Positions 32,224 through 48,187 of a stretch of 64,000 bases of DNA are shown here, one piece after another. The translations under genes and the position numbers were made by a program. Numbering within the stretch: the stretch's first letter is position 1; the number at the start of each line of letters is the position of its first letter. Source of the DNA: a phage; sequence record PX853108.1; one strand, written 5' to 3'. The notes under the pieces are model-generated. The model was not told the DNA's origin. It saw nothing but the letters and a program-made list of their open reading frames with translations, and made no database searches.

Positions 32224-32283
32224 ACTGGCTTACTGTAGAGTAAGTTACCTATATACGATATAAGTTTGAATAGGAAACATGCT

Positions 32284-35200
32284 ATGTCAACATTTGACCG
32301 TCTGGCAGGTTTCGCAGACAGCATCACTAATGCTAAGCAAGTCGATGTCTCTACTGCAACCTCCCGGAAGCAAGCTGCACAGGGGCAAAGCCCTTTCCAA
32401 TTAACCCCAGATAATGCTTACAATCTACAGACTGGACGAGTAGGTAATCTTGGAATCGGTGCATACGAACCAGGTTCACTTCAGGCAGATTTCACTCAAG
32501 CCTCCCCCTTAGAAATCATTAATAAATATGGTAATGAGCAAGGTCTACAGATTCTTAATAGTCGAGCTAATGCTGCTGATGCTGTACGTCAGGACTTATC
32601 TAAACAACGTACTAACGCAGAAGCATTTGGCGATATCCTTTCTGGTGTTGGTCTTGGTGTTGCTAATACCCTTGGGGGCATTGCTGCTCTTGGCACAGGC
32701 TTGGTCAATGATAATGCCGGGGCATCCATTGCTTCCGGTCTTGACTGGTTGAATAAAGGTGTACACAACCTACAGTCCGATGCACTGAATGCTCGCCGTA
32801 ATGTAGTACAGAACCAGAACGTAATATCTGCACAGGAAAATGAGAAACTCTATAAGCAAGATATTGCTAAAGGAGAAAGCGAACTCGTTGCTTCCCTGTC
32901 TCGCATTGGTCGTGATGCTTACGATTCTGTTGCTAATACCCTGTCTAACGGCATGGCTGCTACTGATGGTATTGCTGAAGGTGTAGGTTCTCTGTTTACT
33001 GGTGGCCCATTAATCCGTGGTGTATCTGCACTCGGTAAGGTAATGGTAGGTGGAGATAAAGCTGTTAAGGGTATTACCTTAGCTGCTGAGTTAGGTTCAC
33101 GTCCTGCACGGATTGCACAGTCTGCTGGTCGTGTTGCTGCACCTGCTATAGCAATTGGTGGTATGGAAGCTGGTGGTGCATACCAACAGACTGCTAATGA
33201 AATTATGGAAATGCCATTCAGTGAACTGGCTGCTAAATCTCCAGTATACCAACAGCATATTAAAGATGGTTTATCTCCTGAAGAAGCACGTCGTCAGACT
33301 GCATCTGAAACAGGTATTACTGCTGCTGGCTTAACTGCTCCAGTTGCTGCTCTTACTGGTCCACTGGTATCCAAGTTTGAACTTAACCCACTCAAGGTAG
33401 GTTCACTGGCTGGTGCTGGTTCTAACATGCTGCGTGAGACTGTAGAAGAAGGTATCCAGTCTGGTACAAGTCAGTTCGCACAAAACACTGCAATCAAGGA
33501 AAATGTTGATGCATCTCGTGACATCCTCAAAGGTGTAGGCGAACAAACTGGTCTTGGTGCATTGTATGGCTTTGGTTCTGCTGGGGTTGCTCAAGCTCCT
33601 GGTGCAACTGTTAAGGCTGCTGGTGCTGCCGTTGGTCCTGCTGTACGTACTACCCTGGCTGGTGCTTCTTTGGCTGGTAAGGCACTAGCAAAAGTAGCCT
33701 CCCCTATTACTAACATCCTGGTTCAGCGTGGTGAAGAAGTAGCTAAACGTAACGAACAGGCATCTCCTGTATCTGATGCTACGGTTAATGCTGCTGCACA
33801 GGAAGCTACTGCTCAGGCAGAACAGGCCCAGGCAACCGTACAGGAAGCAGTAGATGCAATGGATATTTCTCCAGAAGAGAAAGCTGCTGCTACCCAGTAT
33901 GCTGCTGACTTAACTCAGGTAATGAAGTTTGATCCAGTAGAACTGGAACAAGCTAGCCCTACAGTCCGTGAAGCTGTTTCTGGTTCCACTAACCGTGTTG
34001 AAGCTATTCAGAAGATGGCTGACCTGGTTAATACTGCCGAAGACCCTAACGTTCAAATGGAAGCTGCAATCCAGATGTACGACAACATCATGTCTATGGA
34101 TAGCTTCATTAACCGTGACCCAGGTGCTCTGGCTAATCTGGAACAAGGCTCTCCTGCTGCTAATATCGTTGACCAATTCTCTGGCCTGATGGCTAACGTT
34201 CAGAATACACCGAAAGTACTTCGTGCATTCCGTGCTATTCATTCCATGATTCAGGAACAGGCAGAAGCAGGTAAACTGAAAGCTACTGAAGAAGCTAACC
34301 AAGCCCAGGCAAACAATATTGCCATGGCTGCTGATATGTCTCCAGAAGTACTGGATGCAGATTCAGTAAACATGGTTCTGAAACATGCAAGTGAAGGTAA
34401 GATTACACTGGGGAATCGTCAGCGTGCTGCCCTGCAATCTGCTGCTGCCTTGTTACAGGGTGCACGAGAATTTGACGCTAAAGCAGAAGAACTAGGCTTA
34501 CGTCCTCAAGACATTGTTAGTAAACAGATTAAAACCGACGAGTCTCGTTCTAATGAAGGCCAGTACTCTGCGTTGCAACATGCTAAACGCATTCGTTCTG
34601 CGTACAACTCTGGTAACTTCGATTTGGCTTCCGCTTATCTCGACGACTTTATGAAGTTCGCCCAGCACATGCAGAATAAGGTCGGAGCGTTGAATGAGCA
34701 TCTGATTTCTGGGAATGCGGATAAGAATAAGTCTGTCCATTATCAGGCTCTTACTCCCTCCCGTGAATGGGTACGTAGTCGTACTGGCCTCGGTGTCAAT
34801 CCGTATGATACCAAGTCTGTTAAGTTTGCCCAGCAAGTAGGACTGGAAGCCAAGACCGTAGCTGATATTGCTAACGCACTTGCTACGGCTTACCCGGAGC
34901 TTAATGTTTCTCATGTTAAGGTTACCCCATTGGATTCCCGTTTGGACAAGCCTGCTGCCCAAGTAGTTAAAGAGTTCCGTCAGGGCAATCTTGATGCTGC
35001 TCAATCCCAACAGACCAATGAACCAGTGAATCAGGTTGATGAATCTCCTGTTACAAAACAGGAACCAGTTACCCCTACTGTACAGACTAAACCCTCTGTT
35101 AGTGAAGCTGTTAAAACAGAACCTACTATTAAAGAGTCTAAACCACAGACTGCAAAAGAACCTGAGAACCAGTCTGAAAAACAGGATGCTGTTGAACAGC

Positions 35201-38200
35201 CTACTGAATCTGAAAGGGATGCTTATGTAAAAGAGAATACTATTTCTCAAGAAACTCTTAATAAGTATGGTGACCGTAGGGAGAGTCCTTGGCTATTTGC
35301 TGATGGTACTGTTGTTGGTTCCAATGGTGACCATATCAGCCTGTCTGATGTATTTGGTCATGATGGTTATCGTGACATGTCTTTGGATACTGGTGCTGTA
35401 CGTTCTACTTTCTACAAAGGAAGTGAGCAACCGTTCGTATCCCTGCAATTGTTTGATAATCAGAAGCTAACTGCTGAACAATTCAATACTGTTCAATCAT
35501 TCGTAGAAGCAAACAATGCACTGATTCAGATTGGTGTAGATACATCTGGGCTTAATACCAATAACGTTGAGAAAGAAGAAGTATCACTGGCTCAACTGAA
35601 AGCAGACTATACCGTTGGTGGTAAACCCCTATCTCAAATGGAAACAGTGTTCCCTGTCTATAACAATGAAAAGACATCGAACCAGTTCCTTAAAGCATTT
35701 TCTCTACCAGAGGAGCCTAAGTCTCGTACCATTGGTTCTGAATCTCCTTTGACTGATGTTAAGAAAGCACTGTCTTCTGCTGCCCGCTTTGAAGCATTCA
35801 CTCAAAAAGAAAATAACGCACTCACGAGTGATGTGATTAAGCGTTACCAGGATTTGTTTGATTTTGGTGAAACTTTGAAGACCACTCTGTCTGACCGTCT
35901 GGCTAAGTTCCTTGCTAACAAGAACGTTGGTAAACGTTTTGCAGAAGGTACTGAGGCTAACCGTTGGGTGGGTGGTAAGTTACTTAACATCGTAGAGAAA
36001 GATGGTGATACCTTTAAGTTCAACGACCAGTTGTTAGAGACTGCTGTACTTGCAGGTTTGCAATGGCGACTAACTGCTACACAGAATGCTGCTGTTAAAG
36101 ACATGAAAGACGTAGCTGCTATTACTGGTGTGGAAGCATCTCTGCTACCAGAAGGTATCCTCGCAGAGTTTGAGAATGCTCAAACCTTAGTAGAGGCTAC
36201 TAACTCACTGGCTCAGAAGATTGAATCCTATTGGGGGCTTAATCGTAATGCTGATGCACCATTGGGTTATACCAAGGGTATCCCAATGGCAATGGCTACA
36301 GAGATTCTGTCTTCTCTCATTGAGATGGGTGAAGTTAAAGAGTCCATGCTGGATGTGTCTGAGATTGACCCAGAATCTAATAAGACCGTTGGTTTGTATA
36401 CCATTGAGAAGTTAGATGATAACGATGCCATTAATAAATTCCCTACTGCTATTGAGGAAGCAGTCCTTCTAGAACCAGTAGAGAAATTGTACTTGGGTGA
36501 TGATATTCCTTCAGTGGCTCAAACTCAGTTACGTAACCCGGCTGTCAAGAATACCCCGGAACAGAAAGCTGCTCTTAAAGCAGAACAGGCTACTGAGTTC
36601 CGTGTACACATGCCCATGGTTAACTTCTATGAAGCATTGGGTCGTGACAACATTCTGGAATTGATGGGTGCTGGTGCTCTTAACCCAGAATTGCTGAATG
36701 TGAATACTGCTAAATCTCTGGAAGGTAAAAACCTGTCCGTGTCTATGGCATATGATTCCTTGTTTGGTGTTATCAATCAGATTAAGGAACAGGAGAATGG
36801 ACTGGATACACCTATTCACTATGGTTACAACATGACCCGTGTAGGTCGTATGCAGATGCTTGGTAAAAATAACCCACAATCCAGTAAGCTGGTCCGTGAA
36901 GCAATCTTACCAACCTTCTCTACCATCGACTTGAGCAATGAAAACAGTCAAACGTTCTCCGATTTCCAGTTAGGTCTGGCTCAGGCATTGGGCATCAAAG
37001 TTCATAAAATGTCTCGCGAAGTTATGTCAGATGAACTGACTAAAGCTCTGGAAGGTAAACTGAAACCTGCCGTTGATATGATGGTTGAGTTTGATAAGTC
37101 TGGACACTTACCTACTGATGCAGTGGATATTCTGAAGACCTCTTTGGGTAATGATAAATCATTTGTAGCTCTCATGGCTCTTATGGAATATGCCCGTTAC
37201 CTTAACAGTGATGACCGTGCCAACTTTAATACCCCACTGTACGTTGAAGCTGATGGTGTAACCAACGGACCAATCAACGCAATGGTATTAATGACTGGTG
37301 GTAAGTTCACCCCAGACTGGATTAAGAATACTGCTAAAGGTGGCTTGTTCTTCGGTAAAGCTGGCAAGACTATGAACGAGCATCATTCGCACGAGGACAG
37401 TGTTGACCTGTATGAAGCATCCACTAATGGTCTGCAACAAGCACTGAATGAATTACGTAGTACTTACCGTAACAACGTTCCTGTTATGAACCAGATGAAC
37501 CATCTCCAGAAATTAATGGACCTGTTCATTAAAGATTTCAATCTTAAGGAAGATGGTACTCTGGACCTGAAACGTGGTATTGCGAAAAACCCACTGACCA
37601 TTACCATTTATGGTTCTGGTGCTCGTGGTATTGCTGGCAAGATGGTTAGTGCAATTACTGATACCATCTACGAACGCTTCAGTGACGTTCTACAAGCTCG
37701 TGCTGCTGACCCTAGCATTTCACCAGCTATGGCTATGTTTGGTAAGGAGGCTGCGTCTGAGGCTGATGCTCAGGCTATGCTGGATACTTTCCTTACTTCT
37801 ATGGAAGCATTGACTGGCAATGTTCCGGTTATGCGTAAAGGTGAGTTGTCTATTCAGCAGGTAGAAGGTGCTCTGACCGGTAAATTAGACCCTCAGAAGT
37901 TTACTGTATCAGGCAATGCTCTGAAGAATTTACAAGAGAACATGCTTCACTTGTTCGTTGAACCAATGCGTACTGGTATCCGAAATACTGTTGGCGAAGG
38001 TTTGATGTACTCTACTGAGAATTTGCAGAAGGCTACCCAGATTCAGTCTCTGGTATTGCAGGATATGTTCCAACAGGCAGTACAGGCTAAGCTGGCAGAA
38101 AAAGAAAAAGACCCAACATGGAAGAAAGGTGATTTCTTAACACAGAAAGAACTGAATGAAATCCAGAATAGCTTAGCTCCACTGGCTCCAATGATTGAGA

Positions 38201-41200
38201 CTGGTTCACAGACTTTCTACATTGCTGGTAGTGAGAATACTGATGTTGCTAACCAAGTATTGGCTACTAACTTAGATGACCGTATGCGTGTACCAATGAG
38301 CATCTATGCTCCTTCACAGGCAGGCGTTGCAGGTATTCCGTTTATGACCATCGGTACTGGTGATGGCATGATGATGCAGACCCTTTCTACTATGAAAGGT
38401 GCTCCGAAGAATACCCTGAAAATCTTTGATGGTATGAACATTGGTATCAACGATATCACCGATGCAAGCCGTAAAGCTAATGAGGCTGTATATACTTCCT
38501 GGCAGGGTAACCCTATCAAGAATGTTTATGATTCCTTTGCTAAGTTCATGAAGAATGTAGACTTCAGTAAACTGTCTGATGAAACCAAACAGGCTATCGC
38601 TAAGTCTGCTCTGGAGTATGACCAGCGTGAGGGTGCTACCGATGACCTGTTACGTGTTGGTGCTGAACAGATTGAACGTAACCTGCGTAACATTGCTTTG
38701 GGTGTAGATATTCGTCACAAGGTAATGGACCAGGTACAGGTCACCGTTGACCAGATGGCTGCTGTTGGTGCTCCTTACGTGAACAACGGTAAAATCTCTC
38801 TGGAAGGTCTGACTGTAGACCAGCAAGTAGCTAAGCTGAACGAACTGTTTGATGCTGAATTAAACAAACGTCGTGATGCAGTTCGTGCTGCTAAAGCAGA
38901 ACCAGTGAAAGAAGTACCGGCTATGGAGAAGGTTGGTCGTGTACTGAAGTCTGGTGTACGTCTGTTGTCTAATACTGCCATTACTAAGCTGGCTAAAGAG
39001 ATGTCTCCTGAACAGCAAGCAGTATTGAAAGAAATACAGAAATCCCTCGCTGCTAAAGACTATAAGGTTGTTTACGGTACACCTGCTCAACTGGATGCTT
39101 ATGCTATTGAGAAGAATATTACTCGCCCAGCACCGGAAGATATTGAAGCTGCTGAAGCTGGTAATGCATATGGCTGGACTAACTTTGAAGATAAGACCAT
39201 CTACTTAGTTACCCCTTCCTTAGAGACTCTGGTTCATGAATTGGTACATGCTACTACTTTTGAATCTGTACTGGCTCATTATGAGGGTACTCCTAATGAA
39301 GCAGTACAGAATATTGAAGACCTGATGAACCAGTTCCTTACTCTGGATGTTAAGGATGAATCTCCGGCTGTACGTGAAGCGTATGCCGATGCACTGAATA
39401 CCATTAATGGTCATTTGTCTAATGGCTTCATTGAACCCGCAATGGCTAAAGCTGCTGCATTGAACGAGTACATGGCTTGGGGTTTAACCAACCGTGAACT
39501 GATTAGCAAGCAGAAGAAAACTACTGCACTTAAAACTATGGTTCAGGCTGTATATGAAGCAATCAAACGTCTGGTATTTGGACGTAAGAAAGCTCCAGCT
39601 AATGCAGATGATATGTTCTCTGGCTTACTGTTTAACTCTGCTGTAGTAATGCGTGGGCAAGCTCCTACTGCTGCTGTAGCTAAAGACACTACTCTGTTCC
39701 ATAACAAAGCATATGGTGACAATACTCGTCTGGAAGAGTTAGGTAAGACCTTTGATAAACTGATTACTGACTACATTGGTTCAGAACCAGTACAGCAAGT
39801 AATTCGTAAAGGTAAATTCTCTGATGCAGTAGTGAATGCAACTAAAGTAACCCGTGATGTTCAGGCTCATGGCTTCACCATGAATATGCAGGAACAACGC
39901 CTCTTCACTAACATTGTTGCTGCATTGGCTACTGAGGCTGCTATTAACCCTGCTGCTCTTGCTCGTGCACAGGAATACTACACGCATGTTACTAAAAACC
40001 TGACTGTTGAAGCATTTATGGCTGACCCTGATAGTACTAACCCTGCTGACCGTTATTATGCACAGCAGAAGTTCGATACTATCATGGGTGCTAACAACAT
40101 TGAGTTTGATGCACAAGGTCGTTCTTCCTTACTGCCTACCTTTGTTGGTCTGGCTATGGTAAGTGAAGAAGTACGTAAGGTTCTGGCTGATATTCCTGTT
40201 ATGAAAGCAGATAAGAAATCAGGCAATACTGTTGACGCAATGCTGACTAACATTGGTACTGCTGCAATGGCTAGCCTGAATGCTCGTGTAGCAGGTGATA
40301 CTAAAGCCACTAACGTACAGGAAGGTATGGATGCACTGGCTCAGACAATCATGCAGACCAGTCTTAATGCAGAATCCTTCTATGATTCCGTTGCTACCCC
40401 TACTGGTAATGCTATCGACCGTGCTAACCAGTATCTGGTGGATTCTATTGATGTACTGTCTACCCGTGCTTTGGAAGGTGCTCGTGAAGTTGCAGCTAAT
40501 ACCAAGAACCCGTTGGTTAAAGGTGCTGCTCATGCTGCACAATTGGTAGCTGCTATTGCTACAGAGAAGAATGGTGCAATCGTAGCCGAAGGTGTTATGG
40601 CTGCAATGAACCAGGGTAAAGTATGGCAACCCTTCCATGACCTGGTTAATGACATAATCGGACGTACTAAGAGCAATGCTTCTGTATACGATTTGATTAA
40701 AGCAGTTCGTGCACAGGTACAGGCTGACCGTCAACAGTTCCGTGAACACTTGCCTACCACTATCGCATCCAAGTTCAGCCGTAAGCTGACTAATGATGAG
40801 TGGAAAGCAATGCATACAGGTATGGGTAAAACTGACTTAGCTGTTCTGCGTGACACTATGTCTCTGGATGAAATCCGTGACCTGCTGTCTGACCAAAAGA
40901 TTGTTGACCGTGAGGTTAATAAACTGGAAGCAGATTTGCAGAAACAAGCAGGACGTAACTGGCCTCTGATTAGTCGTAAATCTAAGCAACTGGCTCAGTA
41001 CATGATTAATGGTACGGTTGGTAATAACCTGTTGCGTAATGCTACTGCAATTTCTCGTTTACTGGGTGAACGTAAGACTACACGTTCTGTTGTAGATGTA
41101 GCTCAACTGGATAAACTCATTACCCTGTATGCACTGGAAGCAATGAATAAAACTGACCGTGAGATGTTATCTTCACTGGCTCAGACAGAAATTGAAGGTA

Positions 41201-43038
41201 TGGACTTTGCTACTTCTTACCTGGTTGGTCAGCGTAAAGATGAAATGGCTAAAGCTAAGTCTGATAGTCGTGCAACCCTGAACCAGTACAAAGGGTATAT
41301 TCCTGGTGAGAACAAACAGGGTGTTAACCTGATTGTTGCTGAAGATAGTCAGTTTGCTGATTTGATTGAGAAATCCTATGTACGACTGGGTACTTATCAG
41401 GGTAGCTCTGCTAATCGTGGTCCAGCACGTAGTTACTACTTTGCACCGGTACAGGCACAGGCTCCATTCTCACAAGGTATCCTACAGAACGTTCGCAATA
41501 CTGCTGGTGGCGTAGACCTTGGCACAGGCTTTACGATGGGAACCATGGTAGCTGGTCGTATTACTGACAAGCCTTCTGTAGACCGTATCACTAAAGCACT
41601 GGCTCGTGGTGAACGCGGTAATGAACCACTGCTGCCTGTATATGATGCCAATGGTAATGTGGTTGCTTACGAGCAATCCATTGACCCTAACATGCTGAAG
41701 CACATCGAAGGTGAGAACCATCTTGCTCGTGCAATTGGTGTATGGCGTGGTCGTCAGGTGGAAGAAGCTAAGGCTCAGCGTTTCAACGATATGCTGATTG
41801 AGAACCTGCATAGCATGTACGAGAACGACATTAAGATGTCTGCTTCTAATAAGTCCCAGTACGTTAACCTTCTTGGTTCGAAACTGGACCCAGTAACTGC
41901 CGATGCTCTTAAACTGATGAACAGTGAAACTCGTCAGAAAGCAGAAAGTCTGTTTGGACCGGGTGAGTTGTGGGTACGTCGTGACATGCTCAACGATGCA
42001 CTGGGTTATCGTGCAGCTTCTGTTGGTGATGCCTGGTCTGGTAATTCTCGTTGGTCCCCAGAAACACTAGATACCTTCAAGAAAGCTATGCTGGGTGTCT
42101 TTGGAAACCGTGCTTATAAGTACGTAATGGGTGGTGAGAATCTGGTTCAAAACTTAGTTAAAGAAGCCAAGACTCTGATTGTAGTTAAGTCAGTAGTCGT
42201 ACCTGCTGTTAACTTCCTGGCTAACCTTTACCAGATGGTTGCTCGTGGTGTACCTGTTAAGAACATTGCTAAGAGCATCCCACAGAAAACTGCTGAGATT
42301 AATCAGTATCTGAAATCTCGCCTGCGTCAGGTAGATGCAGAAGCAGAATTACGTGCAGCTACTAACCCTAACCAGATTCGTAAGCTGAAGGCTGAGATTC
42401 AGTCCATCACGGATAGCCATAAGCGTTTGAGTATCTGGCCTCTGTTAGAAGCTGGTGAGTTTTCTTCAATTGCAGATGCTGGTATTGGACGTGATGACAT
42501 CCTGATTACTGAAGGTAAACTTCACGAATACATGGAAAAGCTGGCTGATAAGTTGCCTAAGTCTGTACGTAATGCTGGTCGTTATGCACTTATCACTAAG
42601 GATACTGCTCTCTTCCAGGGTATCCAGAAGACGGTTGAGTACTCTGACTTTATTGCTAAAGCAATCATCTATGATGAACTGACTCAGCGTAAAGGTAAGA
42701 CCCGAGAAGAAGCACTCGGACGTGTAACGGAAGAGTTCATTAACTATGACCGTTTGCCTGGCCGTTTCCGTGGGTATATGGAAAGTGTTGGTCTGATGTG
42801 GTTCTACAACTTTAAGATTCGTTCTGCAAAAGTTGCAGTGTCCATGATTCGTAACAACCCAGTACATGCTGCTATGGCTATGTTGGCTCCAACTCCTACC
42901 ATGTTTGGTAACGTTGGTCTGCCTATTAAGGACAACATCTTTAGTATTGCTGCACAGGGCAACCTCGGTTACTCCTTCGGATTCGGTATGGGCTTACGTG
43001 CCCATACCCTGAACCCGTGGCTCAACCTCACTAACTAA
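32284..43038 (+). CDS. giant virion-encapsidated RNA polymerase (vRNAP)
   Basis: 3584 aa from ATG 32284 (RBS AGGAAA; track start 32266); central T7-like motifs A EADGVTNGPINAM (near 37245), B LKRGIAKNPLTITIYGSG (near 37560), C KIFDGMNIGI (near 38417). Confidence 0.85.
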   Translation: MSTFDRLAGFADSITNAKQVDVSTATSRKQAAQGQSPFQLTPDNAYNLQTGRVGNLGIGAYEPGSLQADFTQASPLEIINKYGNEQGLQILNSRANAADAVRQDLSKQRTNAEAFGDILSGVGLGVANTLGGIAALGTGLVNDNAGASIASGLDWLNKGVHNLQSDALNARRNVVQNQNVISAQENEKLYKQDIAKGESELVASLSRIGRDAYDSVANTLSNGMAATDGIAEGVGSLFTGGPLIRGVSALGKVMVGGDKAVKGITLAAELGSRPARIAQSAGRVAAPAIAIGGMEAGGAYQQTANEIMEMPFSELAAKSPVYQQHIKDGLSPEEARRQTASETGITAAGLTAPVAALTGPLVSKFELNPLKVGSLAGAGSNMLRETVEEGIQSGTSQFAQNTAIKENVDASRDILKGVGEQTGLGALYGFGSAGVAQAPGATVKAAGAAVGPAVRTTLAGASLAGKALAKVASPITNILVQRGEEVAKRNEQASPVSDATVNAAAQEATAQAEQAQATVQEAVDAMDISPEEKAAATQYAADLTQVMKFDPVELEQASPTVREAVSGSTNRVEAIQKMADLVNTAEDPNVQMEAAIQMYDNIMSMDSFINRDPGALANLEQGSPAANIVDQFSGLMANVQNTPKVLRAFRAIHSMIQEQAEAGKLKATEEANQAQANNIAMAADMSPEVLDADSVNMVLKHASEGKITLGNRQRAALQSAAALLQGAREFDAKAEELGLRPQDIVSKQIKTDESRSNEGQYSALQHAKRIRSAYNSGNFDLASAYLDDFMKFAQHMQNKVGALNEHLISGNADKNKSVHYQALTPSREWVRSRTGLGVNPYDTKSVKFAQQVGLEAKTVADIANALATAYPELNVSHVKVTPLDSRLDKPAAQVVKEFRQGNLDAAQSQQTNEPVNQVDESPVTKQEPVTPTVQTKPSVSEAVKTEPTIKESKPQTAKEPENQSEKQDAVEQPTESERDAYVKENTISQETLNKYGDRRESPWLFADGTVVGSNGDHISLSDVFGHDGYRDMSLDTGAVRSTFYKGSEQPFVSLQLFDNQKLTAEQFNTVQSFVEANNALIQIGVDTSGLNTNNVEKEEVSLAQLKADYTVGGKPLSQMETVFPVYNNEKTSNQFLKAFSLPEEPKSRTIGSESPLTDVKKALSSAARFEAFTQKENNALTSDVIKRYQDLFDFGETLKTTLSDRLAKFLANKNVGKRFAEGTEANRWVGGKLLNIVEKDGDTFKFNDQLLETAVLAGLQWRLTATQNAAVKDMKDVAAITGVEASLLPEGILAEFENAQTLVEATNSLAQKIESYWGLNRNADAPLGYTKGIPMAMATEILSSLIEMGEVKESMLDVSEIDPESNKTVGLYTIEKLDDNDAINKFPTAIEEAVLLEPVEKLYLGDDIPSVAQTQLRNPAVKNTPEQKAALKAEQATEFRVHMPMVNFYEALGRDNILELMGAGALNPELLNVNTAKSLEGKNLSVSMAYDSLFGVINQIKEQENGLDTPIHYGYNMTRVGRMQMLGKNNPQSSKLVREAILPTFSTIDLSNENSQTFSDFQLGLAQALGIKVHKMSREVMSDELTKALEGKLKPAVDMMVEFDKSGHLPTDAVDILKTSLGNDKSFVALMALMEYARYLNSDDRANFNTPLYVEADGVTNGPINAMVLMTGGKFTPDWIKNTAKGGLFFGKAGKTMNEHHSHEDSVDLYEASTNGLQQALNELRSTYRNNVPVMNQMNHLQKLMDLFIKDFNLKEDGTLDLKRGIAKNPLTITIYGSGARGIAGKMVSAITDTIYERFSDVLQARAADPSISPAMAMFGKEAASEADAQAMLDTFLTSMEALTGNVPVMRKGELSIQQVEGALTGKLDPQKFTVSGNALKNLQENMLHLFVEPMRTGIRNTVGEGLMYSTENLQKATQIQSLVLQDMFQQAVQAKLAEKEKDPTWKKGDFLTQKELNEIQNSLAPLAPMIETGSQTFYIAGSENTDVANQVLATNLDDRMRVPMSIYAPSQAGVAGIPFMTIGTGDGMMMQTLSTMKGAPKNTLKIFDGMNIGINDITDASRKANEAVYTSWQGNPIKNVYDSFAKFMKNVDFSKLSDETKQAIAKSALEYDQREGATDDLLRVGAEQIERNLRNIALGVDIRHKVMDQVQVTVDQMAAVGAPYVNNGKISLEGLTVDQQVAKLNELFDAELNKRRDAVRAAKAEPVKEVPAMEKVGRVLKSGVRLLSNTAITKLAKEMSPEQQAVLKEIQKSLAAKDYKVVYGTPAQLDAYAIEKNITRPAPEDIEAAEAGNAYGWTNFEDKTIYLVTPSLETLVHELVHATTFESVLAHYEGTPNEAVQNIEDLMNQFLTLDVKDESPAVREAYADALNTINGHLSNGFIEPAMAKAAALNEYMAWGLTNRELISKQKKTTALKTMVQAVYEAIKRLVFGRKKAPANADDMFSGLLFNSAVVMRGQAPTAAVAKDTTLFHNKAYGDNTRLEELGKTFDKLITDYIGSEPVQQVIRKGKFSDAVVNATKVTRDVQAHGFTMNMQEQRLFTNIVAALATEAAINPAALARAQEYYTHVTKNLTVEAFMADPDSTNPADRYYAQQKFDTIMGANNIEFDAQGRSSLLPTFVGLAMVSEEVRKVLADIPVMKADKKSGNTVDAMLTNIGTAAMASLNARVAGDTKATNVQEGMDALAQTIMQTSLNAESFYDSVATPTGNAIDRANQYLVDSIDVLSTRALEGAREVAANTKNPLVKGAAHAAQLVAAIATEKNGAIVAEGVMAAMNQGKVWQPFHDLVNDIIGRTKSNASVYDLIKAVRAQVQADRQQFREHLPTTIASKFSRKLTNDEWKAMHTGMGKTDLAVLRDTMSLDEIRDLLSDQKIVDREVNKLEADLQKQAGRNWPLISRKSKQLAQYMINGTVGNNLLRNATAISRLLGERKTTRSVVDVAQLDKLITLYALEAMNKTDREMLSSLAQTEIEGMDFATSYLVGQRKDEMAKAKSDSRATLNQYKGYIPGENKQGVNLIVAEDSQFADLIEKSYVRLGTYQGSSANRGPARSYYFAPVQAQAPFSQGILQNVRNTAGGVDLGTGFTMGTMVAGRITDKPSVDRITKALARGERGNEPLLPVYDANGNVVAYEQSIDPNMLKHIEGENHLARAIGVWRGRQVEEAKAQRFNDMLIENLHSMYENDIKMSASNKSQYVNLLGSKLDPVTADALKLMNSETRQKAESLFGPGELWVRRDMLNDALGYRAASVGDAWSGNSRWSPETLDTFKKAMLGVFGNRAYKYVMGGENLVQNLVKEAKTLIVVKSVVVPAVNFLANLYQMVARGVPVKNIAKSIPQKTAEINQYLKSRLRQVDAEAELRAATNPNQIRKLKAEIQSITDSHKRLSIWPLLEAGEFSSIADAGIGRDDILITEGKLHEYMEKLADKLPKSVRNAGRYALITKDTALFQGIQKTVEYSDFIAKAIIYDELTQRKGKTREEALGRVTEEFINYDRLPGRFRGYMESVGLMWFYNFKIRSAKVAVSMIRNNPVHAAMAMLAPTPTMFGNVGLPIKDNIFSIAAQGNLGYSFGFGMGLRAHTLNPWLNLTN

Positions 43039-43985: not shown

Positions 43986-44261
43986 TCAGCTTAGTGTTGT
44001 TGATTTAACATAGGTTTCCCGGAATATATCCGGTTTACAAGGATATAACTCCCCATGTATGCCCTGGATAATATAGTCATTAGGTGAAGCAGTTAAGATA
44101 CCCTCCAAGGTTCTAATACATAATTTACTATCATTCCCAGAGAACCAGACTACCCCATTACGAAGGGCATCTACTATCCAAGCTGGTTCTTTGTTCAGAT
44201 TAAGACTTCCGTCCCATTGAAAAGCTTCAATCTCAACAGGTTTTTTACGATATTTAGCCAT
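43986..44261 (-). CDS. hypothetical protein (91 aa after start trimming)
   Basis: Trimmed to ATG 44261 with RBS AGGAGA. Confidence 0.4.
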   Translation of the reverse strand: MAKYRKKPVEIEAFQWDGSLNLNKEPAWIVDALRNGVVWFSGNDSKLCIRTLEGILTASPNDYIIQGIHGELYPCKPDIFRETYVKSTTLS

Positions 44262-44278: not shown

Positions 44279-44308
44279 CAAATAAAAAAGTCCCTCCGAA
44301 GAGGGACT
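44279..44308 (-). terminator. rho-independent terminator (minus strand), UUCG tetraloop
   Basis: AGUCCCUC-UUCG-GAGGGACU followed by UUUUUUAUUU. Confidence 0.6.
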
Positions 44309-44565
44309 TAGTAGCTTTAACGCAGCTAACGAGGCTTGTATGAGTGCTAGGATTTGTAACTCCCAGCATATCCCCACCGTTTTAGCTGACGGCAAACAGA
44401 GATTGATAGTCTCAGAGGATACTTTACTCAGGCGAGTATTATAGTCTACTCATACTCACACTACCCTAACGGGTAGTATGTTTGCAATACCTAGAGTGCC
44501 GGACTGTCTCACCGGCATTGTCTTTAGAGTGCAATGCAATCAGGACTATGTTCTCTATTAATGAG

Positions 44566-44638
44566 TACCCACTACTGGATTTGAACCAGTGACCTTCCGA
44601 TTATTAGTCGGTTGCTTTCCCCGTCTAAGCTAAGTGGG
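44566..44638 (-). tRNA. tRNA-like gene, canonical cloverleaf; anticodon reads AAU by hand (Ile-type, unusual A34)
   Basis: Acceptor GCCCACT/AGTGGGT, D-arm GCTT...AAGC, anticodon arm ACCGA-CUAAUAA-UCGGA, T-arm ACTGG-TTCAAAT-CCAGT; folded by hand only. Confidence 0.55.
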
Positions 44639-44643
44639 CATAA

Positions 44644-44719
44644 ATGGTTACCCGGACAGGATTCGAACCTGTGTCCTAGTTGGTTTACTAGTGGGGCTTT
44701 ACCACTAAGCCTACCGGGT
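44644..44719 (-). tRNA. tRNA-like gene with encoded CCA and non-canonical anticodon loop (6 or 8 nt)
   Basis: Acceptor TACCCGG/CCGGGTA, D-arm GGCT...AGCC, T-arm ACAGG-TTCGAAT-CCTGT, then A-CCA; anticodon region CTAGT-AAACCA-ACTAG does not give a 7-nt loop. Confidence 0.45.
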
Positions 44720-45304
44720 ATTAATGAGTGAGTCACGCCAGACTTTAACTGGCTCCTTCTTCGCAATCCTTACATACCCCTACATAATTATTGCGTTAAG
44801 CTTTTTTGTTTAAGTTTAAGTGAAGGCGTTCTTGCTGACTCATAATAGGTTGGGCGTTTGACGAATGACTAGTTCGTTACTACCCGTTTGCCATAAGTAC
44901 CTGGCGACTTTGGTTTGAGGTGGGAGTCCGAGTCCTGTACAGCCTTACCGTTCACACATTGGCAGCGTATCTAGAATAGCACTTCCGGCAACTGGATTTA
45001 ACTGTTACACCTCAAATCTGGTAGGGGCGTCCAGAAGTCTCATCTGGTACTTACGCCGTCGTATGGTTACGACTTACCCCCATAATCTTTCTAATTCAGA
45101 GTAGCACTGCTCCACGTTTGGCCTTTGAACTCCGGGATGGATTAGTGCAATGCTACTTTGAATTAGTTGTCAGGGATTCCACCTGGCTCCATCTGTTTTT
45201 ATAGTCACTCAGATATCGTCTGGACTCTTTACTATGGGACTCACCGGCTACTTAGAGTAACTACGGTAAATATTATTCCACAGCTTACATTGATGTCGCA
45301 TCCC

Positions 45305-45388
45305 ATCAAAGAGTACACTAGCACTGGGCCACGCATAAGTGGGCATCGGCCTTCCTCCCACAGCTAATCTACTAATGTACTCATTGAT
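45305..45388. repeat. element R1: 84-bp unit bounded by 14-bp imperfect inverted repeats
   Basis: Left end ATCAAAGAGTACAC, right end ATGTACTCATTGAT (12/14 match as reverse complement); internal hairpins. Confidence 0.5.
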
Positions 45389-45560
45389 TGGCCCCCCGTT
45401 TCTAATACATGGACGGGGGAACTCCACGGTCGTTTGATAATCAGGACGACTCACTCCTGACTGACGCTTGGCTTATTAGGCTGCCATCAGAACAACATCA
45501 TCGTTTGCATTTATGTTATTGGTTCGTTTCTAAAAAACCGCATAATCGCTTACGAAAACT

Positions 45561-45661
45561 ATCAAAGAGTACACTAAGCACAGGTAGCTATCCTGCCGTC
45601 TTCTCCACCTACACCGGCTACAGTGTAAACCTCCGCACGTTAGCTTAATGTACTCATTGAT
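45561..45661. repeat. element R2: 101-bp unit with the same terminal inverted repeats as R1
   Basis: Identical 14-bp termini to R1, different internal sequence. Confidence 0.5.
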
Positions 45662-46393
45662 AGGATGTCATAATAGGGGAGGGAGGACGAGTCCCTCTTT
45701 ACCCTATGATTTAGTTTGCATGTAAGACCTAACAATTCGATGCTGTAGGTAGCTATGCTATCCGACATTTAACCCAGCCCATATAGGGGCTTATGTGATT
45801 AAAATGCTCAACATTGAGCGGTTAGTTGATAAGGGATCTGAAGCCTTATCCCAAAGATACTAACCTTTGGGATATAGCCTAAGATTCAGAAATGGCCCCT
45901 ATAGGGAGAGGCCATTGATTAACCCGAATGTTGCTTTACCTTTTATGTGATAACCCATTCTTAAAATAGTCTAGCTGACGGATGGGGGGCCACCCCTAGC
46001 GTCAGTGCCATACGGCAAAGATTAAGTTAAGAAAGGTTATGATAGGAGTTCCTATCTCAAAGGATTCTAACAGAACCCTTCACGATATTAACTACTCAAC
46101 GTGAAATTCTTTGATTCCCTCGACAGGTTCTACACCCCAGGAAAAAGCTAACTTTTCCATTTAATTTTGATTGAACCAATGGACTGGGGAGAGTATTCCA
46201 ATCCACTGGTTCGGTTGTTGTTGTTACTCTGGCGGCTTGTCACCACCGTTTTTATCACTGAGTTTCCAAAGTATAAGCACAGTGATGATAAATGCTATGT
46301 ATGGAGCCGACACGTCCAGAATCCTGATAAGCAATAGCATCAGAATTACGAACACTACCACAAATAGCAGCAGCTTCTGAGCCACCTACCAGA

Positions 46394-46835: not shown

Positions 46836-47390
46836 TTACGCCTTTAATAACTTAATAAGGTTCTGGAAAGCTGGGAGATTTACACCAGCATGGATTGCAC
46901 CGATTGCATCAGCTAAGTGCTCATTCTTATTCAGAAGTTTGCCCTTCTTATCTGTGAGCCAGTTGGCTTCAGGATAGAAGGCATGAGCAGCACGAATCAT
47001 CGTGTCTTTGGATGCGGTTTTATCACCGACCAGTGCAAGTTTGTTTTCAATTGGGGATACTTCAAAGATTGGACAACCCAATGCACGAAATGCACCTATT
47101 AATCCTACGCATACTCCATAGGATTTCATACCATTAGCAGACTGGGAGCCTACTGGTACTTCTACGAATACTGCTTTAGCAGACCGTAACCATTCCTCAC
47201 AACCAAGAAACAAATCGTGAGCGGCTTGTATATCTTTGGAGTTGGTTCGAACTTGTTTGTTGTGGTCAACTTCAGTTTGAACCAGTTTAAGTTCGACCTG
47301 CTCGAAGACGCCGGACTCAATGTCCAGCGTCCCACGAGCTAAACCCCAATTGCGGAGACTAATGTCTGCACCAACAATTGGGATTTTCAT
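46836..47390 (-). CDS. hypothetical protein, possible RNase H-fold (RuvC/YqgF-like) nuclease
   Basis: 184 aa; N-terminal MKIPIVGADIS resembles resolvase start; weak. Confidence 0.3.
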   Translation of the reverse strand: MKIPIVGADISLRNWGLARGTLDIESGVFEQVELKLVQTEVDHNKQVRTNSKDIQAAHDLFLGCEEWLRSAKAVFVEVPVGSQSANGMKSYGVCVGLIGAFRALGCPIFEVSPIENKLALVGDKTASKDTMIRAAHAFYPEANWLTDKKGKLLNKNEHLADAIGAIHAGVNLPAFQNLIKLLKA

Positions 47391-48187
47391 TAACGTTTAC
47401 CGAACAGTGATTTACCACCAGCAGGAGTAGTACTCGTGCCAGCACCTGGTTTAGGAGGTAAGCCACCTTTACCATTACCACCAGCAGAACTCTTAGTCTT
47501 GTCGCGAGTTTTGCCTTTGTTCTTCTCCAGCCATGCTGCGTAGAATACAGCCAGTTCTGGGGTCAGCTCTTTTTCAGCCTTCTCTGCTTCCTGAGCCTCG
47601 ACGACTGTGACCAGCAGTTCCGGGTGAAACACTTTCTGAATCTCGTTTACTTCACGGGTTTCACCGGAGTCAACGTAGCCGTTGTCACCTTTAACCTGCT
47701 TGGATTCCAGAACTTTTTCCAGAGCGAAGGTAACAGTCTGGTTTACCAGATCAACTGGAACCATGACAGACTTATTAACTTCTGCTTTAGCATCGAAATC
47801 GTAGACTTTAACAATCTTCTCTTCGAAGTCTGCTTCAGGCAGTTCAGTACCAGTAGCCATTAGCATCATGTCGTTAATGACAGTGTAGCCAGGCAAGAAG
47901 TATTCTTTACCGTTCTTCTCGTAAGTAGGCTTGTTGCCTTTAGCATTACCAGAAGTGAAATATACCTGAGCACGGAACTCACCAGCAGGTACGCCATCTG
48001 AGTTTTTCATGTCATCAATGATTAACTGCATCCAGTCTGCCCCAGAGTCAGCTTTGCCTACGTAAGCTACTTTTACATTACCGGTGTAGATATCGGTTTC
48101 TTTTGCACCGAAGCCACCTCCACCCAGAGAGTCTTTAACAGCTTCAACGTTTTTGGTTTTTTCTTTCAGATTACTGAACAATGACAT
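47390..48187 (-). CDS. single-stranded DNA-binding protein-like (N4 SSB-like)
   Basis: 265 aa, Gly/basic C-terminal tail, position in replication module; assignment by size and synteny only. Confidence 0.45.
   Translation of the reverse strand: MSLFSNLKEKTKNVEAVKDSLGGGGFGAKETDIYTGNVKVAYVGKADSGADWMQLIIDDMKNSDGVPAGEFRAQVYFTSGNAKGNKPTYEKNGKEYFLPGYTVINDMMLMATGTELPEADFEEKIVKVYDFDAKAEVNKSVMVPVDLVNQTVTFALEKVLESKQVKGDNGYVDSGETREVNEIQKVFHPELLVTVVEAQEAEKAEKELTPELAVFYAAWLEKNKGKTRDKTKSSAGGNGKGGLPPKPGAGTSTTPAGGKSLFGKR

Follow-up and report, generated by a model that had tools for sequence, protein, structure and literature searches.

The described RNAs closest to the element considered here are the transfer-messenger RNAs (tmRNAs) of ribosome rescue, among them the circularly permuted, two-piece tmRNAs of alpha- and beta-proteobacteria and cyanobacteria (RF00023, RF01849, RF01850 and RF04321). 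The element lies in a structured island of about 2.1 kb (44280-46390) in the genome of an N4-like coliphage, sequence record PX853108.1, of which a stretch of 64,000 nucleotides (the window) was analysed. It is a module of ~170 nt on the minus strand (45392-45559), referred to below as the tag module, which matches tmRNA in its mRNA-like domain, helix 5 and pseudoknots but carries no tRNA-like domain (TLD). It was recognized from a sub-threshold Rfam match, from counts of base pairs and from its homologues. In an exhaustive survey of 2014, phage ssrA was listed only for mycobacteriophages and Bacillus phage G, with none in phages of Enterobacterales (PMC4131195). The full ssrA of the Bxz1 type and the RNAs of Bacillus phage G and DS6A resemble the tag module in being phage-encoded derivatives of tmRNA, and DS6A likewise carries one half of the molecule (PMC4131195). 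These RNAs differ from the tag module in that they have the TLD, which in DS6A stands alone, whereas the tag module is the complementary half and occurs in Enterobacterales phages.

Like tmRNA, the tag module has a GCA alanine resume codon behind an A/U-rich AUAAAU, a tag of the form AND(D/E)...(L/M/V)AA with the same 10 codons as the gamma- and beta-proteobacterial ANDENYALAA, one or more stop codons in a helix-5-like loop and H-type pseudoknots downstream, and four tmRNA models have sub-threshold matches at exactly this place. Unlike tmRNA, it has no acceptor stem, T-arm, CCA end or P2 helix, it is ~170 rather than ~360 nt long with two downstream pseudoknots rather than three, it sits inside phage non-coding RNA arrays, and its tags end in LMAA, MVAA or LAVA rather than in ALAA. 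Since the module is tmRNA-like but fails the test of the TLD that defines the class, it is treated here as a variant of the tmRNA kind and not as tmRNA proper.

For the island as a whole, the tRNA region of bacteriophage T4 is a described counterpart, in which tRNA genes are accompanied by the co-transcribed stable species 1 and species 2 RNAs, species 1 being a substrate of RNase III. The two are alike in that tRNAs are interleaved with small structured RNAs in one unit, which is probably processed from a polycistronic precursor. They are unlike in that no sequence relation was found, and neither the tmRNA-like module nor the stems that frame several modules of the island (framing stems) are features of T4. 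A search of the literature with full text, tag peptides, arm sequences and descriptive terms returned no description of the tag module, and Rfam 15 holds no family for it or for the framing stems. A catalogue of ~10,000 candidate viral structured RNAs from 2023 may include some of the modules as unnamed candidates (PMC10690425).

Sequence, reading frame and distribution of the tag module

The tag reading frame (45476-45508, minus strand) is GCA AAC GAU GAU GUU GUU CUG AUG GCA GCC UAA, followed by a second UAA, and encodes ANDDVVLMAA. The resume codon directly follows the leader AUAAAU, and the double UAA sits in the loop of the helix-5-like stem. The marks of a tmRNA mRNA-like domain, namely an alanine resume codon, a short tag ending in a hydrophobic residue and AA, and a stop codon in the loop of helix 5, are all present. 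In a permissive Rfam scan the tmRNA_permuted model matched 45579-45476 (minus strand) with 33.4 bits and an E value of 2e-4 (gathering score 47), and in a set of 11 diverse homologous loci the permuted, alpha, beta and standard tmRNA models matched the tag region of 9, with 11.7-33.5 bits. None of these scores reaches the gathering threshold, the best being 33.4-33.5 against 47 for RF04321, 20.8 against 50 for RF01849, 20.4 against 84 for RF01850 and 11.7 against 47 for RF00023. Nucleotide similarity of the tag module to host ssrA does not extend beyond GCAAACGA.

Homologues of the tag module occur in 286 phage records with 70-97% identity by BLAST, and they are unannotated in nearly all of the 60 records listed. 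The lineages include N4-like, P1-like and lambdoid/P22-like phages, T1-like siphoviruses, Ackermannviridae (e.g. Serratia phage Kevin), Grimontviridae and an Aeromonas phage. The copy in P1 (NC_005856, 68791-69060) begins 7 nt after the annotated 'dicF-like region' and its terminator, in the leader of the C1-controlled ban operon and upstream of trnA/trnT; an arm sequence of the framing stems, CACAACAGGTAAGGG, recurs in P1 right after trnT. The copy in HK620 lies in the late leader between qut and tQ. Homologous prophage sequence is present in 147 of 5426 complete E. coli genomes, and PGAP has annotated it in none of the 25 listed of these 147.

A degenerate pattern for the 5' part of the module retrieved at least 120 contigs from IMG/VR. 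The pattern fixes the first eight bases of the frame, and conservation of codons 1-3 among the matches is by construction. Among the IMG/VR matches listed, a frame of 10 codons is found in 124 of 125, and the commonest of the tags they encode are ANDDLMMVAA (43), ANDDVVLMAA (27), ANEEMYLAVA (13), ANDEQFLAVA (11) and ANDDLMLMAA (10). Applied to 596 Gb of bacterial genomes, the same pattern gave 43 chance matches, one of which has 10 codons, and 6 true copies. A bacterial origin of the module was rejected on these grounds, as the true copies (6 of 49 matches) occur only in prophage or plasmid contexts of Enterobacterales and the rest are due to chance. One P1-type copy stands in a 5.8-kb contig of a metagenome-assembled genome labelled Bacillota, most likely a mis-binned contig of a P1-like plasmid or phage (locus L159).

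The distinct tag open reading frames (ORFs) number 28, all of them 33 nt long and without insertions or deletions. Summed over codons 3-10 of these related sequences, the entropy at codon positions 1, 2 and 3 is 6.04, 3.88 and 9.24, respectively, which is the signature of a translated frame under coding-type constraint. Copies too divergent for the pattern keep the same design, with the tags ANDNEFKVAA in phiEa2809, ANDNAVRVAA in pSal-SNUABM-01 and ANDSEVLMAA, behind a GCU resume codon, in ST-W77. Conventional translation of the frame was considered and rejected because there is no in-frame start codon and no Shine-Dalgarno sequence. An overlapping AUG frame was also rejected, since in the four variants read it gives peptides of 5-9 residues and its most variable position would be the second codon position.

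Secondary structure of the tag module

The structure of the tag module was drawn from four sequences, and its pairs were then counted on a MAFFT alignment of 54 distinct homologues. Paired cells amount to 88.4%, compared with 40-47% when the partners are slid by 1-3 columns. Both sides have changed in 17 pairs, and the covariation score reaches 0.212, where shuffles give 0.111 (none of 500 as high), a statistic that overstates independence since the homologues are related. The alignment was made from sequence and is imperfect at the 5' end and in the P1-type and N4-type loops, a flaw that makes the paired percentages too low rather than too high. The initial annotation had proposed an alignment of related phages for covariation, and in the tag module the pairs of helix 5 and of the two downstream pseudoknots do covary across the 54 homologues.

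Compensatory changes in helix 5, which holds the stop codon in its loop, include CUGG/CCAG and CUGA/UCAG, and AAAG/CUUU and CGAG/CUCG in divergent copies; its outer stem covaries between G-C (30) and A-U (23). Two H-type pseudoknots follow, formed in the window by UCAGGA/UCCUGA with GUCG/CGAC and by CCCCCG/CGGGGG with CGUGGA/UCCAUG. The first stem of pseudoknot 1 changes, for example, between CAAGG/CCUUG, UGAGG/CCUCA and CGGGG/CCCCG, and its loop pairing between CCGA:UCGG, CCAG:CUGG, CCAA:UUGG and GUCG:CGAC. Both stems of pseudoknot 2 change as well (CACU:GGUG, CAGU:ACUG; GUGGA:UCCAU, GCAGA:UCUGU, GGAGU:ACUCU). Compensatory changes are thus found in all four stems of the downstream pseudoknots, which take the place of PK2-PK4 of tmRNA and are two in number, not three, and phiEa2809 and pSal-SNUABM-01 add further variants. 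Given the same alignment but not the drawn structure, RNAalifold recovered one stem of each pseudoknot with compensatory changes. An analogue of the upstream pseudoknot PK1 can be drawn from GUUUU/GAAAC crossing CUUUGCGG/CCACAAAG, with pairs that are nearly invariant and a register that differs in the N4-like copies; at this position RNAalifold places a different small hairpin.

Framing stems and the mosaic of modules

The tag module lies between two hairpin modules, A and B, that share their arms. Two repeat elements, R1 and R2, had been pointed out in the island; they are direct repeats at 45373-45391/45646-45664 and 45305-45320/45561-45576, two sequences of 16-19 nt in two copies each, and their exact arm sequences have no further copy in the 64-kb window. 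R1 and R2 are the arms of 16-21-bp stems that frame variable inserts: in the window, AUCAAUGAGUACAUUA and UAGUGUACUCUUUGAU pair over 16-21 bp, with one U.U, around the two different inserts of modules A and B. Module A (45664-45559, minus strand; repeats D1/D3) pairs its 5' arm CCUAUCAAUGAGUACAUUAAGC (45664-45643) with its 3' arm GCUUAGUGUACUCUUUGAUAG (45579-45559) over 21 bp, including one U.U, around an insert of 63 nt, whose own hairpin covaries from CAGG/CCUG to CAAG/CUUG in locus L113. Module B (45390-45303, minus strand; repeats D1/D3), with the arms CAAUCAAUGAGUACAUUAGUAG and GUGCUAGUGUACUCUUUGAUGG, frames 44 nt with a GUGGG...CCCAC hairpin, and by BLAST the insert is also found in phiEco32-like phages, among them PGN6866, KM01 and FH3. 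Module C (45166-45091, minus strand) is an inverted repeat (I1) of 90% complementarity whose 20-bp stem, CUAAUUCAAAGUAGCAUUGC/GCAGUGCUACUCUGAAUUAG, frames 36 nt and appears in both minimum free energy (MFE) and centroid folds; its arms are a variant of those of A and B. Module D (45013-44917, minus strand) is closed in the fold by a stem of GAGGUG...CCCACCUC, and the region around it (45025-44906) is common to the ~150-kb Klebsiella and Enterobacter myoviruses KaOmega, F4M1E and ENT3 at 83% identity by BLAST. A further, mobile module of ~70 nt (45226-45156, minus strand) has a T-arm-like hairpin, CAGG-UGGAAUC-CCUG; it is annotated 'tRNA-OTHER' in Klebsiella phage KP8 and is common to N4-like, T1-like, 9NA-like and other phages at 85-96% identity by BLAST.

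Analogous arms occur in other phage families, in the form (CACAAC)A GGUAAGAGCAUU ... AGUGCUCUUUCC(GUUGUG). The arm consensus is GGUAAGAGCA/UGCUCUUUCC, and in the window the corresponding sequences are AUCAAUGAGUACA/UGUACUCUUUGAU. For a count of pairing, 44 modules were picked on the arm cores alone and the six flanking pairs outside the cores were scored. These flanks are paired in 87.9% of cases, compared with 66.6 +/- 3.2% once each 5' flank is given the 3' flank of another module (2000 shuffles, at most 78.4%). Among the types of flank pairs are CACAAC/GUUGUG, CUAUC/GAUAG and CGAAAUCU/AGUUUUCG. A U.U at the third arm pair is conserved in 31 of the 44 modules, and the lambdoid version of the stem also has one bulge. 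Because the flanks covary copy by copy, the partner of each 5' arm is the 3' arm on the far side of the same insert, and selection acts on the stem as a folded strand. For the same reason the arms on either side of the tag module were rejected as a P2 helix.

The inserts are very diverse, with 81 distinct arm pairs; some recur as families and some carry canonical T-arms. A recurrent module, GUGAAUGCGCAGGCUGAUGCGCGC..., stands immediately behind many 3' arms, in 50 of 108 distinct contexts; HK620 (L003, 2270-2330) and about 50 further loci have it. The order of modules differs between close relatives: module B stands upstream of the tag module in phage PBM-3 and downstream of it in the window. 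Since the modules differ in the unrelated phages that carry them, their order changes and arm-like repeats also stand at the tRNA pair described below, the island is a mosaic of exchangeable RNA cassettes. As far as found, this stem-framed organisation is undescribed.

Two described systems share parts of this design. Y RNA and its YrlA relatives (RF02553), which also occur in phages, are alike in having a long terminal stem with a conserved bulge or mismatch and a variable apical domain, often with a T-arm-like hairpin. They are unlike the cassettes in that no Ro60/Rsr gene is linked to the island. The YrlA model has no match in the window at E<=10, and its sole match in the related loci, 25.6 bits against a gathering score of 69, falls on the tRNA genes of P1. 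To our knowledge, E. coli K-12 has no rsr. The attC sites of integrons are similar: they too are imperfect inverted repeats around variable centres, with an unpaired base that is conserved, and they set independently mobile cassettes apart. The cargo of the phage arrays, however, consists of RNA genes rather than ORFs, and the inserts within the stems are themselves conserved RNA-like modules; the arms contain no R/L box with a GTTRRRY core, and no integrase adjoins the island.

Proposed working of the island and alternatives

The island is read here as a non-coding RNA operon on the minus strand, running from about 46060 to a terminator at 44288, whose transcript is processed and whose tag module engages host trans-translation with an acceptor supplied in trans. 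The probability of this reading is put at about 0.5, and at no more than even odds because an untethered template is without precedent. The operon would consist of a structured leader, three stem-framed hairpin modules, further small structured modules, two tRNA genes and the tag module, and would be transcribed as one unit; the homologous arrays in P1 and lambdoid phages sit in known transcribed leaders (the ban-operon leader of P1 and the late leader of HK620). The transcript would be cut at the tRNA ends and within the 16-21-bp framing stems, which are substrates of the RNase III type, and stable small RNAs would be released. The tag module would engage SmpB, ribosomal protein S1 and the rescued ribosome. 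Conservation of the frame suggests that the module is decoded, and decoding would in turn require engagement of a rescued ribosome with the acceptor supplied in trans. Rescued nascent chains in infected cells would then receive the phage-specified tag ANDDVVLMAA (host tag ANDENYALAA), whose C-terminal degron is altered. At the DNA level, the conserved arms probably serve in addition as joints for the exchange of cassettes between phages. The initial annotation had suggested small RNAs, a replication origin or a cluster of processing or packaging signals; its small-RNA and processing reading is sustained by the tRNA genes, the covarying tmRNA-like RNA and the copy-wise covarying stems, all on one strand and flanked by a promoter candidate and a strong intrinsic terminator, whereas origin and packaging are not (see below).

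Several observations weigh against this proposal. Its weakest link is the acceptor function, which would have to come in trans from host tmRNA-SmpB or from a phage tRNA-like RNA, a purely conjectural step. We know of no established mechanism by which a ribosome uses an mRNA-like domain that is untethered to the entering TLD. ARAGORN detected no tmRNA in the window or in 20 related loci, several of which have no tRNA gene at all, and a TLD with a G3.U70 acceptor stem, a T-arm and a 3' CCA is absent from the window and the related loci. A scan of the module's surroundings for a T-arm with an acceptor, whether in the standard or the permuted order, returned only separate tRNAs or tRNA-like RNAs; the nearest in the window lies 877 nt downstream of the conserved GCGAUUAUGCGG anchor of the tag module and has C3-G70. 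Every Rfam match to a tmRNA model is below the gathering score and confined to the tag region. The pseudoknot that can be drawn upstream is almost invariant and so gains no support from covariation. The codon periodicity rests on related, non-independent sequences, and the frame partly overlaps helix 5, which adds structural constraint. Antisense pairing of the module in the window to E. coli ssrA was rejected, as duplex energies are no better than those of shuffles and there is no special complementarity. Finally, matches to the promoter consensus are no more common in the island than in shuffles (6 compared with 5.3).

A k-mer survey found no universal module co-occurring with the tag module, only arms, P1-specific sequence and generic T-arms, and none of nine flanking proteins scanned is SmpB-like. 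A module that consists of a framing stem, a T-arm (GUAGAG-UUCGACU-CUCUAC), a closed 6-bp 'acceptor' hairpin (CGUGGG-CUUUUU-CCCGCG) and again the framing stem was considered as a permuted TLD. It was rejected, a further point against the proposal, because it occurs in only 7 of 124 loci (L090, L006, L007, L009, L052, L107 and L120) and has G.U at 4:69 and not at 3:70. L090 is the only locus with it directly upstream of the tag module, at about -90 to -1, which is the position of the TLD in permuted tmRNA. This T-arm module may be an ancestral or alternative complete form. Non-canonical tRNA-like RNAs occur after or near the tag module in PBM-3 (L001, ~2510-2170, minus strand), in L049 (+159 to +290 from the tag anchor), in pSal-SNUABM-01 (L176, 1381-1585) and in ST-W77 (L177, ~1400-1600). 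They are 75-150 nt long and unannotated, with 7-bp acceptor stems, canonical T-arms of the GGUUCGAAUCC type, non-canonical bodies and in some cases an encoded CCA, and G3.U70 is found in none of them. The window is without cassettes of this type. A wider proposal, which is speculative and judged unlikely, is that trans-translation is split in at least six unrelated lineages of enterobacterial phages. The decoded tag module would there be free-standing, its acceptor would be drawn from host tmRNA-SmpB or from the non-canonical, CCA-ending tRNA-like RNAs of the same islands, and the cassettes would be framed by a conserved processing and recombination stem as in an 'RNA-gene integron'.

The main rival to decoding is that the tag module is never decoded and serves as a decoy or sponge, titrating the SmpB tail, ribosomal protein S1, RNase R or a defence nuclease and thereby inhibiting or redirecting host trans-translation or RNA decay. 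Such a role would directly explain the missing acceptor domain, and the pseudoknots are the best-conserved structural parts of the module. There are precedents in the TLD-only tmRNA fragment of mycobacteriophage DS6A, which is thought to titrate SmpB (PMC4131195), and in the staphylococcal phage anti-CRISPR AcrIIIA1, which employs RNase R-binding t(m)RNA fragments (PMC11662646). A reading frame would be superfluous in a decoy, however, yet the frame always has 10 codons, has no insertions or deletions and varies mostly at third positions, and the tmRNA-like residues (AND/E..., a hydrophobic residue and C-terminal AA or VA) are kept across divergent phage families. The decoy is therefore a possible though doubtful account of the module.

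Alternatively, the arms could be primarily DNA-level recombination joints of a cassette-exchange system, by attC-like logic or as mosaic boundaries, with the inserts as passengers. The changing order of modules between close relatives, the separate phylogenetic distribution of each module, the arm-like direct repeats that flank the tRNA pair and an HNH endonuclease gene in the same region of phage ZQ2 fit this view. As a primary role it is nevertheless improbable, since no recombinase is linked to the arrays, the arms lack an attC core, the copy-specific compensatory changes point to selection on the folded strand and many inserts carry RNA-type motifs such as canonical T-arms. Recombination at the arms and RNA processing are compatible with one another.

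That the tag module is just the inert remnant of a tmRNA gene once captured, and the island junk or spacer DNA, is very improbable. The domain needed for canonical function is indeed missing, and the island is highly variable among Gamaleyaviruses and holds an ORF remnant, but the module is kept in N4-like, P1-like, lambdoid/P22-like and T1-like phages as well as in Ackermannviridae and Grimontviridae; five or more of its helices show compensatory changes, and among the matches listed 124 of 125 copies have an intact frame. Phage genomes are compact, moreover, and there is no extended nucleotide similarity to ssrA beyond the short motif already mentioned. A replication origin or packaging-signal cluster, suggested by dense hairpins and repeats in a gene-free stretch, is the least probable of all, since the repeats are paired arms of RNA-type stems, the island has no skew inflection (a single one falls at the strand switch near 42.9 kb), no iterons and no AT-rich unwinding element, and its conserved units, with compensated stems and a reading frame, move singly between phages with unrelated replication and packaging (P1, HK620, T1-like phages and Ackermannviridae).

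Setting of the island and its other features

The phage belongs to the G7C/Bp4/ECBP1 group of N4-like coliphages (Gamaleyavirus), a placement based on an ORF of 3590 aa for the virion RNA polymerase (vRNAP), an N4-type single-stranded DNA-binding protein (SSB), a gp49-family gene and 93% nucleotide identity to PD38, Bp4 and ECBP1, which by BLAST covers 84% of the length of the interval. The vRNAP ORF occupies 32266-43038 on the plus strand; its homologue in PBM-3 is labelled 'DNA polymerase', which looks like a mis-annotation. Every gene to the right of 43102 is on the minus strand, in the order of a Sak4-like protein, the N4-type SSB (47390-48187), a RuvC-like resolvase, two small unknown proteins, the island and four small genes that include the N4 gp49-family protein. 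The island had been placed between convergent late and middle gene blocks, which does not hold: the blocks converge at 43038/43102, and the island is found ~1.2 kb further in, within the minus-strand (early/middle) block and towards the 3' end of that block. N4-like Klebsiella phages keep tRNA genes at the equivalent place (PMC6950046).

All conserved features of the island are read on the minus strand. The absence of any credible ORF over ~2.1 kb, as initially annotated, is borne out for the ~1.9 kb of 46220-44280, where no ORF is conserved, and strictly from about 46090 to 44280, and fails at the right edge, which is coding. There, a conserved ORF for a membrane-type protein of 53 aa (46224-46385, minus strand; PHROG 19025) fills the last ~170 nt of the interval, and a remnant of 22 codons (MEKLAFSWGVEPVEGIKEFHVE*; 46160-46092, minus strand) is left by deletion from an ORF of 56 aa that is intact in PBM-3 (L001, 3356-3186). 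Other ORFs, on the plus strand or elsewhere, such as one of 79 aa at 45409-45648, were rejected because they are unconserved and the conserved features sit on the minus strand. In nithesis, Bas96 and Mimir124 the homologous island carries 7-10 annotated 'hypothetical proteins', probably an over-annotation of a structured RNA region. The island varies among Gamaleyaviruses, with coverage of 54-84% in the best 40 of 172 matching records. In vB_EcoP-ZQ2 a gene for an HNH homing endonuclease is inserted in the homologous island, which fits a recombination-prone region tolerant of insertions.

The description of the island as packed with stable hairpins is well founded, as it folds better than shuffled sequence and the hairpins named are present. 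Against dinucleotide shuffles the MFE has z = -5.04 for 46060-45300 and -3.18 for 45300-44721; an equal-length neighbouring coding stretch gives -2.70, so that an excess of structure over coding sequence is clear only for 46060-45300. Terminator-like sites number 7, compared with 2.2 +/- 1.4 in shuffles. The hairpins CCCCCGT...ACGGGGG (45393-45420) and TCCCAAAG...CTTTGGGA (45850-45872; inverted repeat I2) are exact, and the one at 44455-44485 has its 7-bp stem ACTACCC/GGGTAGT but only weak extension in place of the long stem implied.

A candidate promoter of the sigma-70 type (46064-46091, minus strand) consists of TTAATA, a 16-nt spacer and the extended -10 TGtTAGAAT, with 9 of 12 consensus matches plus TG, and its sequence is identical in PBM-3. 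It would start the island transcript near 46057, and it overlaps the 3' end of the 22-codon ORF remnant. The structured leader that follows (45690-46060, minus strand) is a series of hairpins, including that at 45885-45836 (inverted repeat I2) and the stem CUGACG...CGUCAG; its 3' half (45856-45685) is common to phiEco32-like Kuraviruses such as ECBP2, TH43 and NC-B at 81-83% identity by BLAST. At the other end, a variable 3' segment (44314-44564, minus strand) that includes the 44485-44455 hairpin has BLAST coverage only in the closest relatives (Bp4, ECBP1 and PD38). It is followed by a strong intrinsic terminator (44280-44309, minus strand), AAGUCCCUC-UUCG-GAGGGACUU, whose 9-bp stem contains 5 G-C pairs and leads into a U-tract; immediately downstream comes the ribosome-binding site of the gene that starts with ATG at 44261. 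Promoter candidate (46091-46064) and terminator (44309-44288) bracket ~1.77 kb on the minus strand, which thus reads from promoter-like site through the tRNAs to terminator. Sub-threshold Rfam matches to CRISPR-DR46, STnc100 and a miRNA were rejected as the terminator or chance.

Two tRNA-like genes had been noticed in the island, and ARAGORN and Rfam agree on two tRNA genes, both on the minus strand. At the gathering score, Rfam matches nothing but these two tRNAs in the window and nothing but tRNAs in 15 related loci. The first is a tRNA-Ile(AAU) without encoded CCA (44639-44565; ARAGORN; Rfam 64.8 bits), which has the cloverleaf, a 7-nt anticodon loop and a score above the Rfam threshold, and whose 3' end merges into the arm-like sequence GUACUCAUUAAUAG (repeats I3/I4). 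The second (44720-44645), with an encoded ACCA, is non-canonical: Rfam gives 42 bits with the anticodon arm unaligned, and ARAGORN reports 'tRNA-???'. Its acceptor, D and T arms are normal, with U1-A72, A2-U71 and C3-G70 as the first acceptor pairs, and its anticodon loop has 6 nt (or 8 nt). It is kept in PBM-3 as 'tRNA-OTHER' and conserved among Gamaleyaviruses. The 6-nt loop makes a decoding function doubtful even though 42 bits exceeds the Rfam threshold, and the RNA may be a tRNA mimic that does not decode, perhaps one that lures anticodon nucleases, or may partner the tag module. A direct repeat, ACUCAUUAAUA, lies on either side of the two-tRNA cassette, at 44735-44725 and 44565-44555 (minus strand); its sequence is similar to the 3' arm of the framing stems, and it overlaps the tRNA-Ile at the 3' end. 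To judge from the sequence, the tRNA pair is placed as if inserted by recombination at an arm.

Implications

The tag module represents a conserved family that keeps only the mRNA-like half of tmRNA, supported by covariation and under coding-type constraint, and it occurs in the model phages P1 and HK620 as well as in N4-like phages that are candidates for therapy. It raises the question of whether phages supply a template for trans-translation in trans or a mimic that disarms ribosome rescue or RNA decay, and since the genetics of P1 and HK620 and ssrA and smpB host mutants exist, that question is directly testable. More broadly, what many phage annotations show as 'non-coding gaps', 'tRNA-OTHER' entries or pseudo-tRNA calls appears to consist of structured RNA modules, exchangeable and with a framing stem in common, that are strung together in arrays; at present no Rfam family or annotation pipeline captures them. 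If the tag is indeed decoded, the phage would rewrite the degradation tag on rescued proteins.

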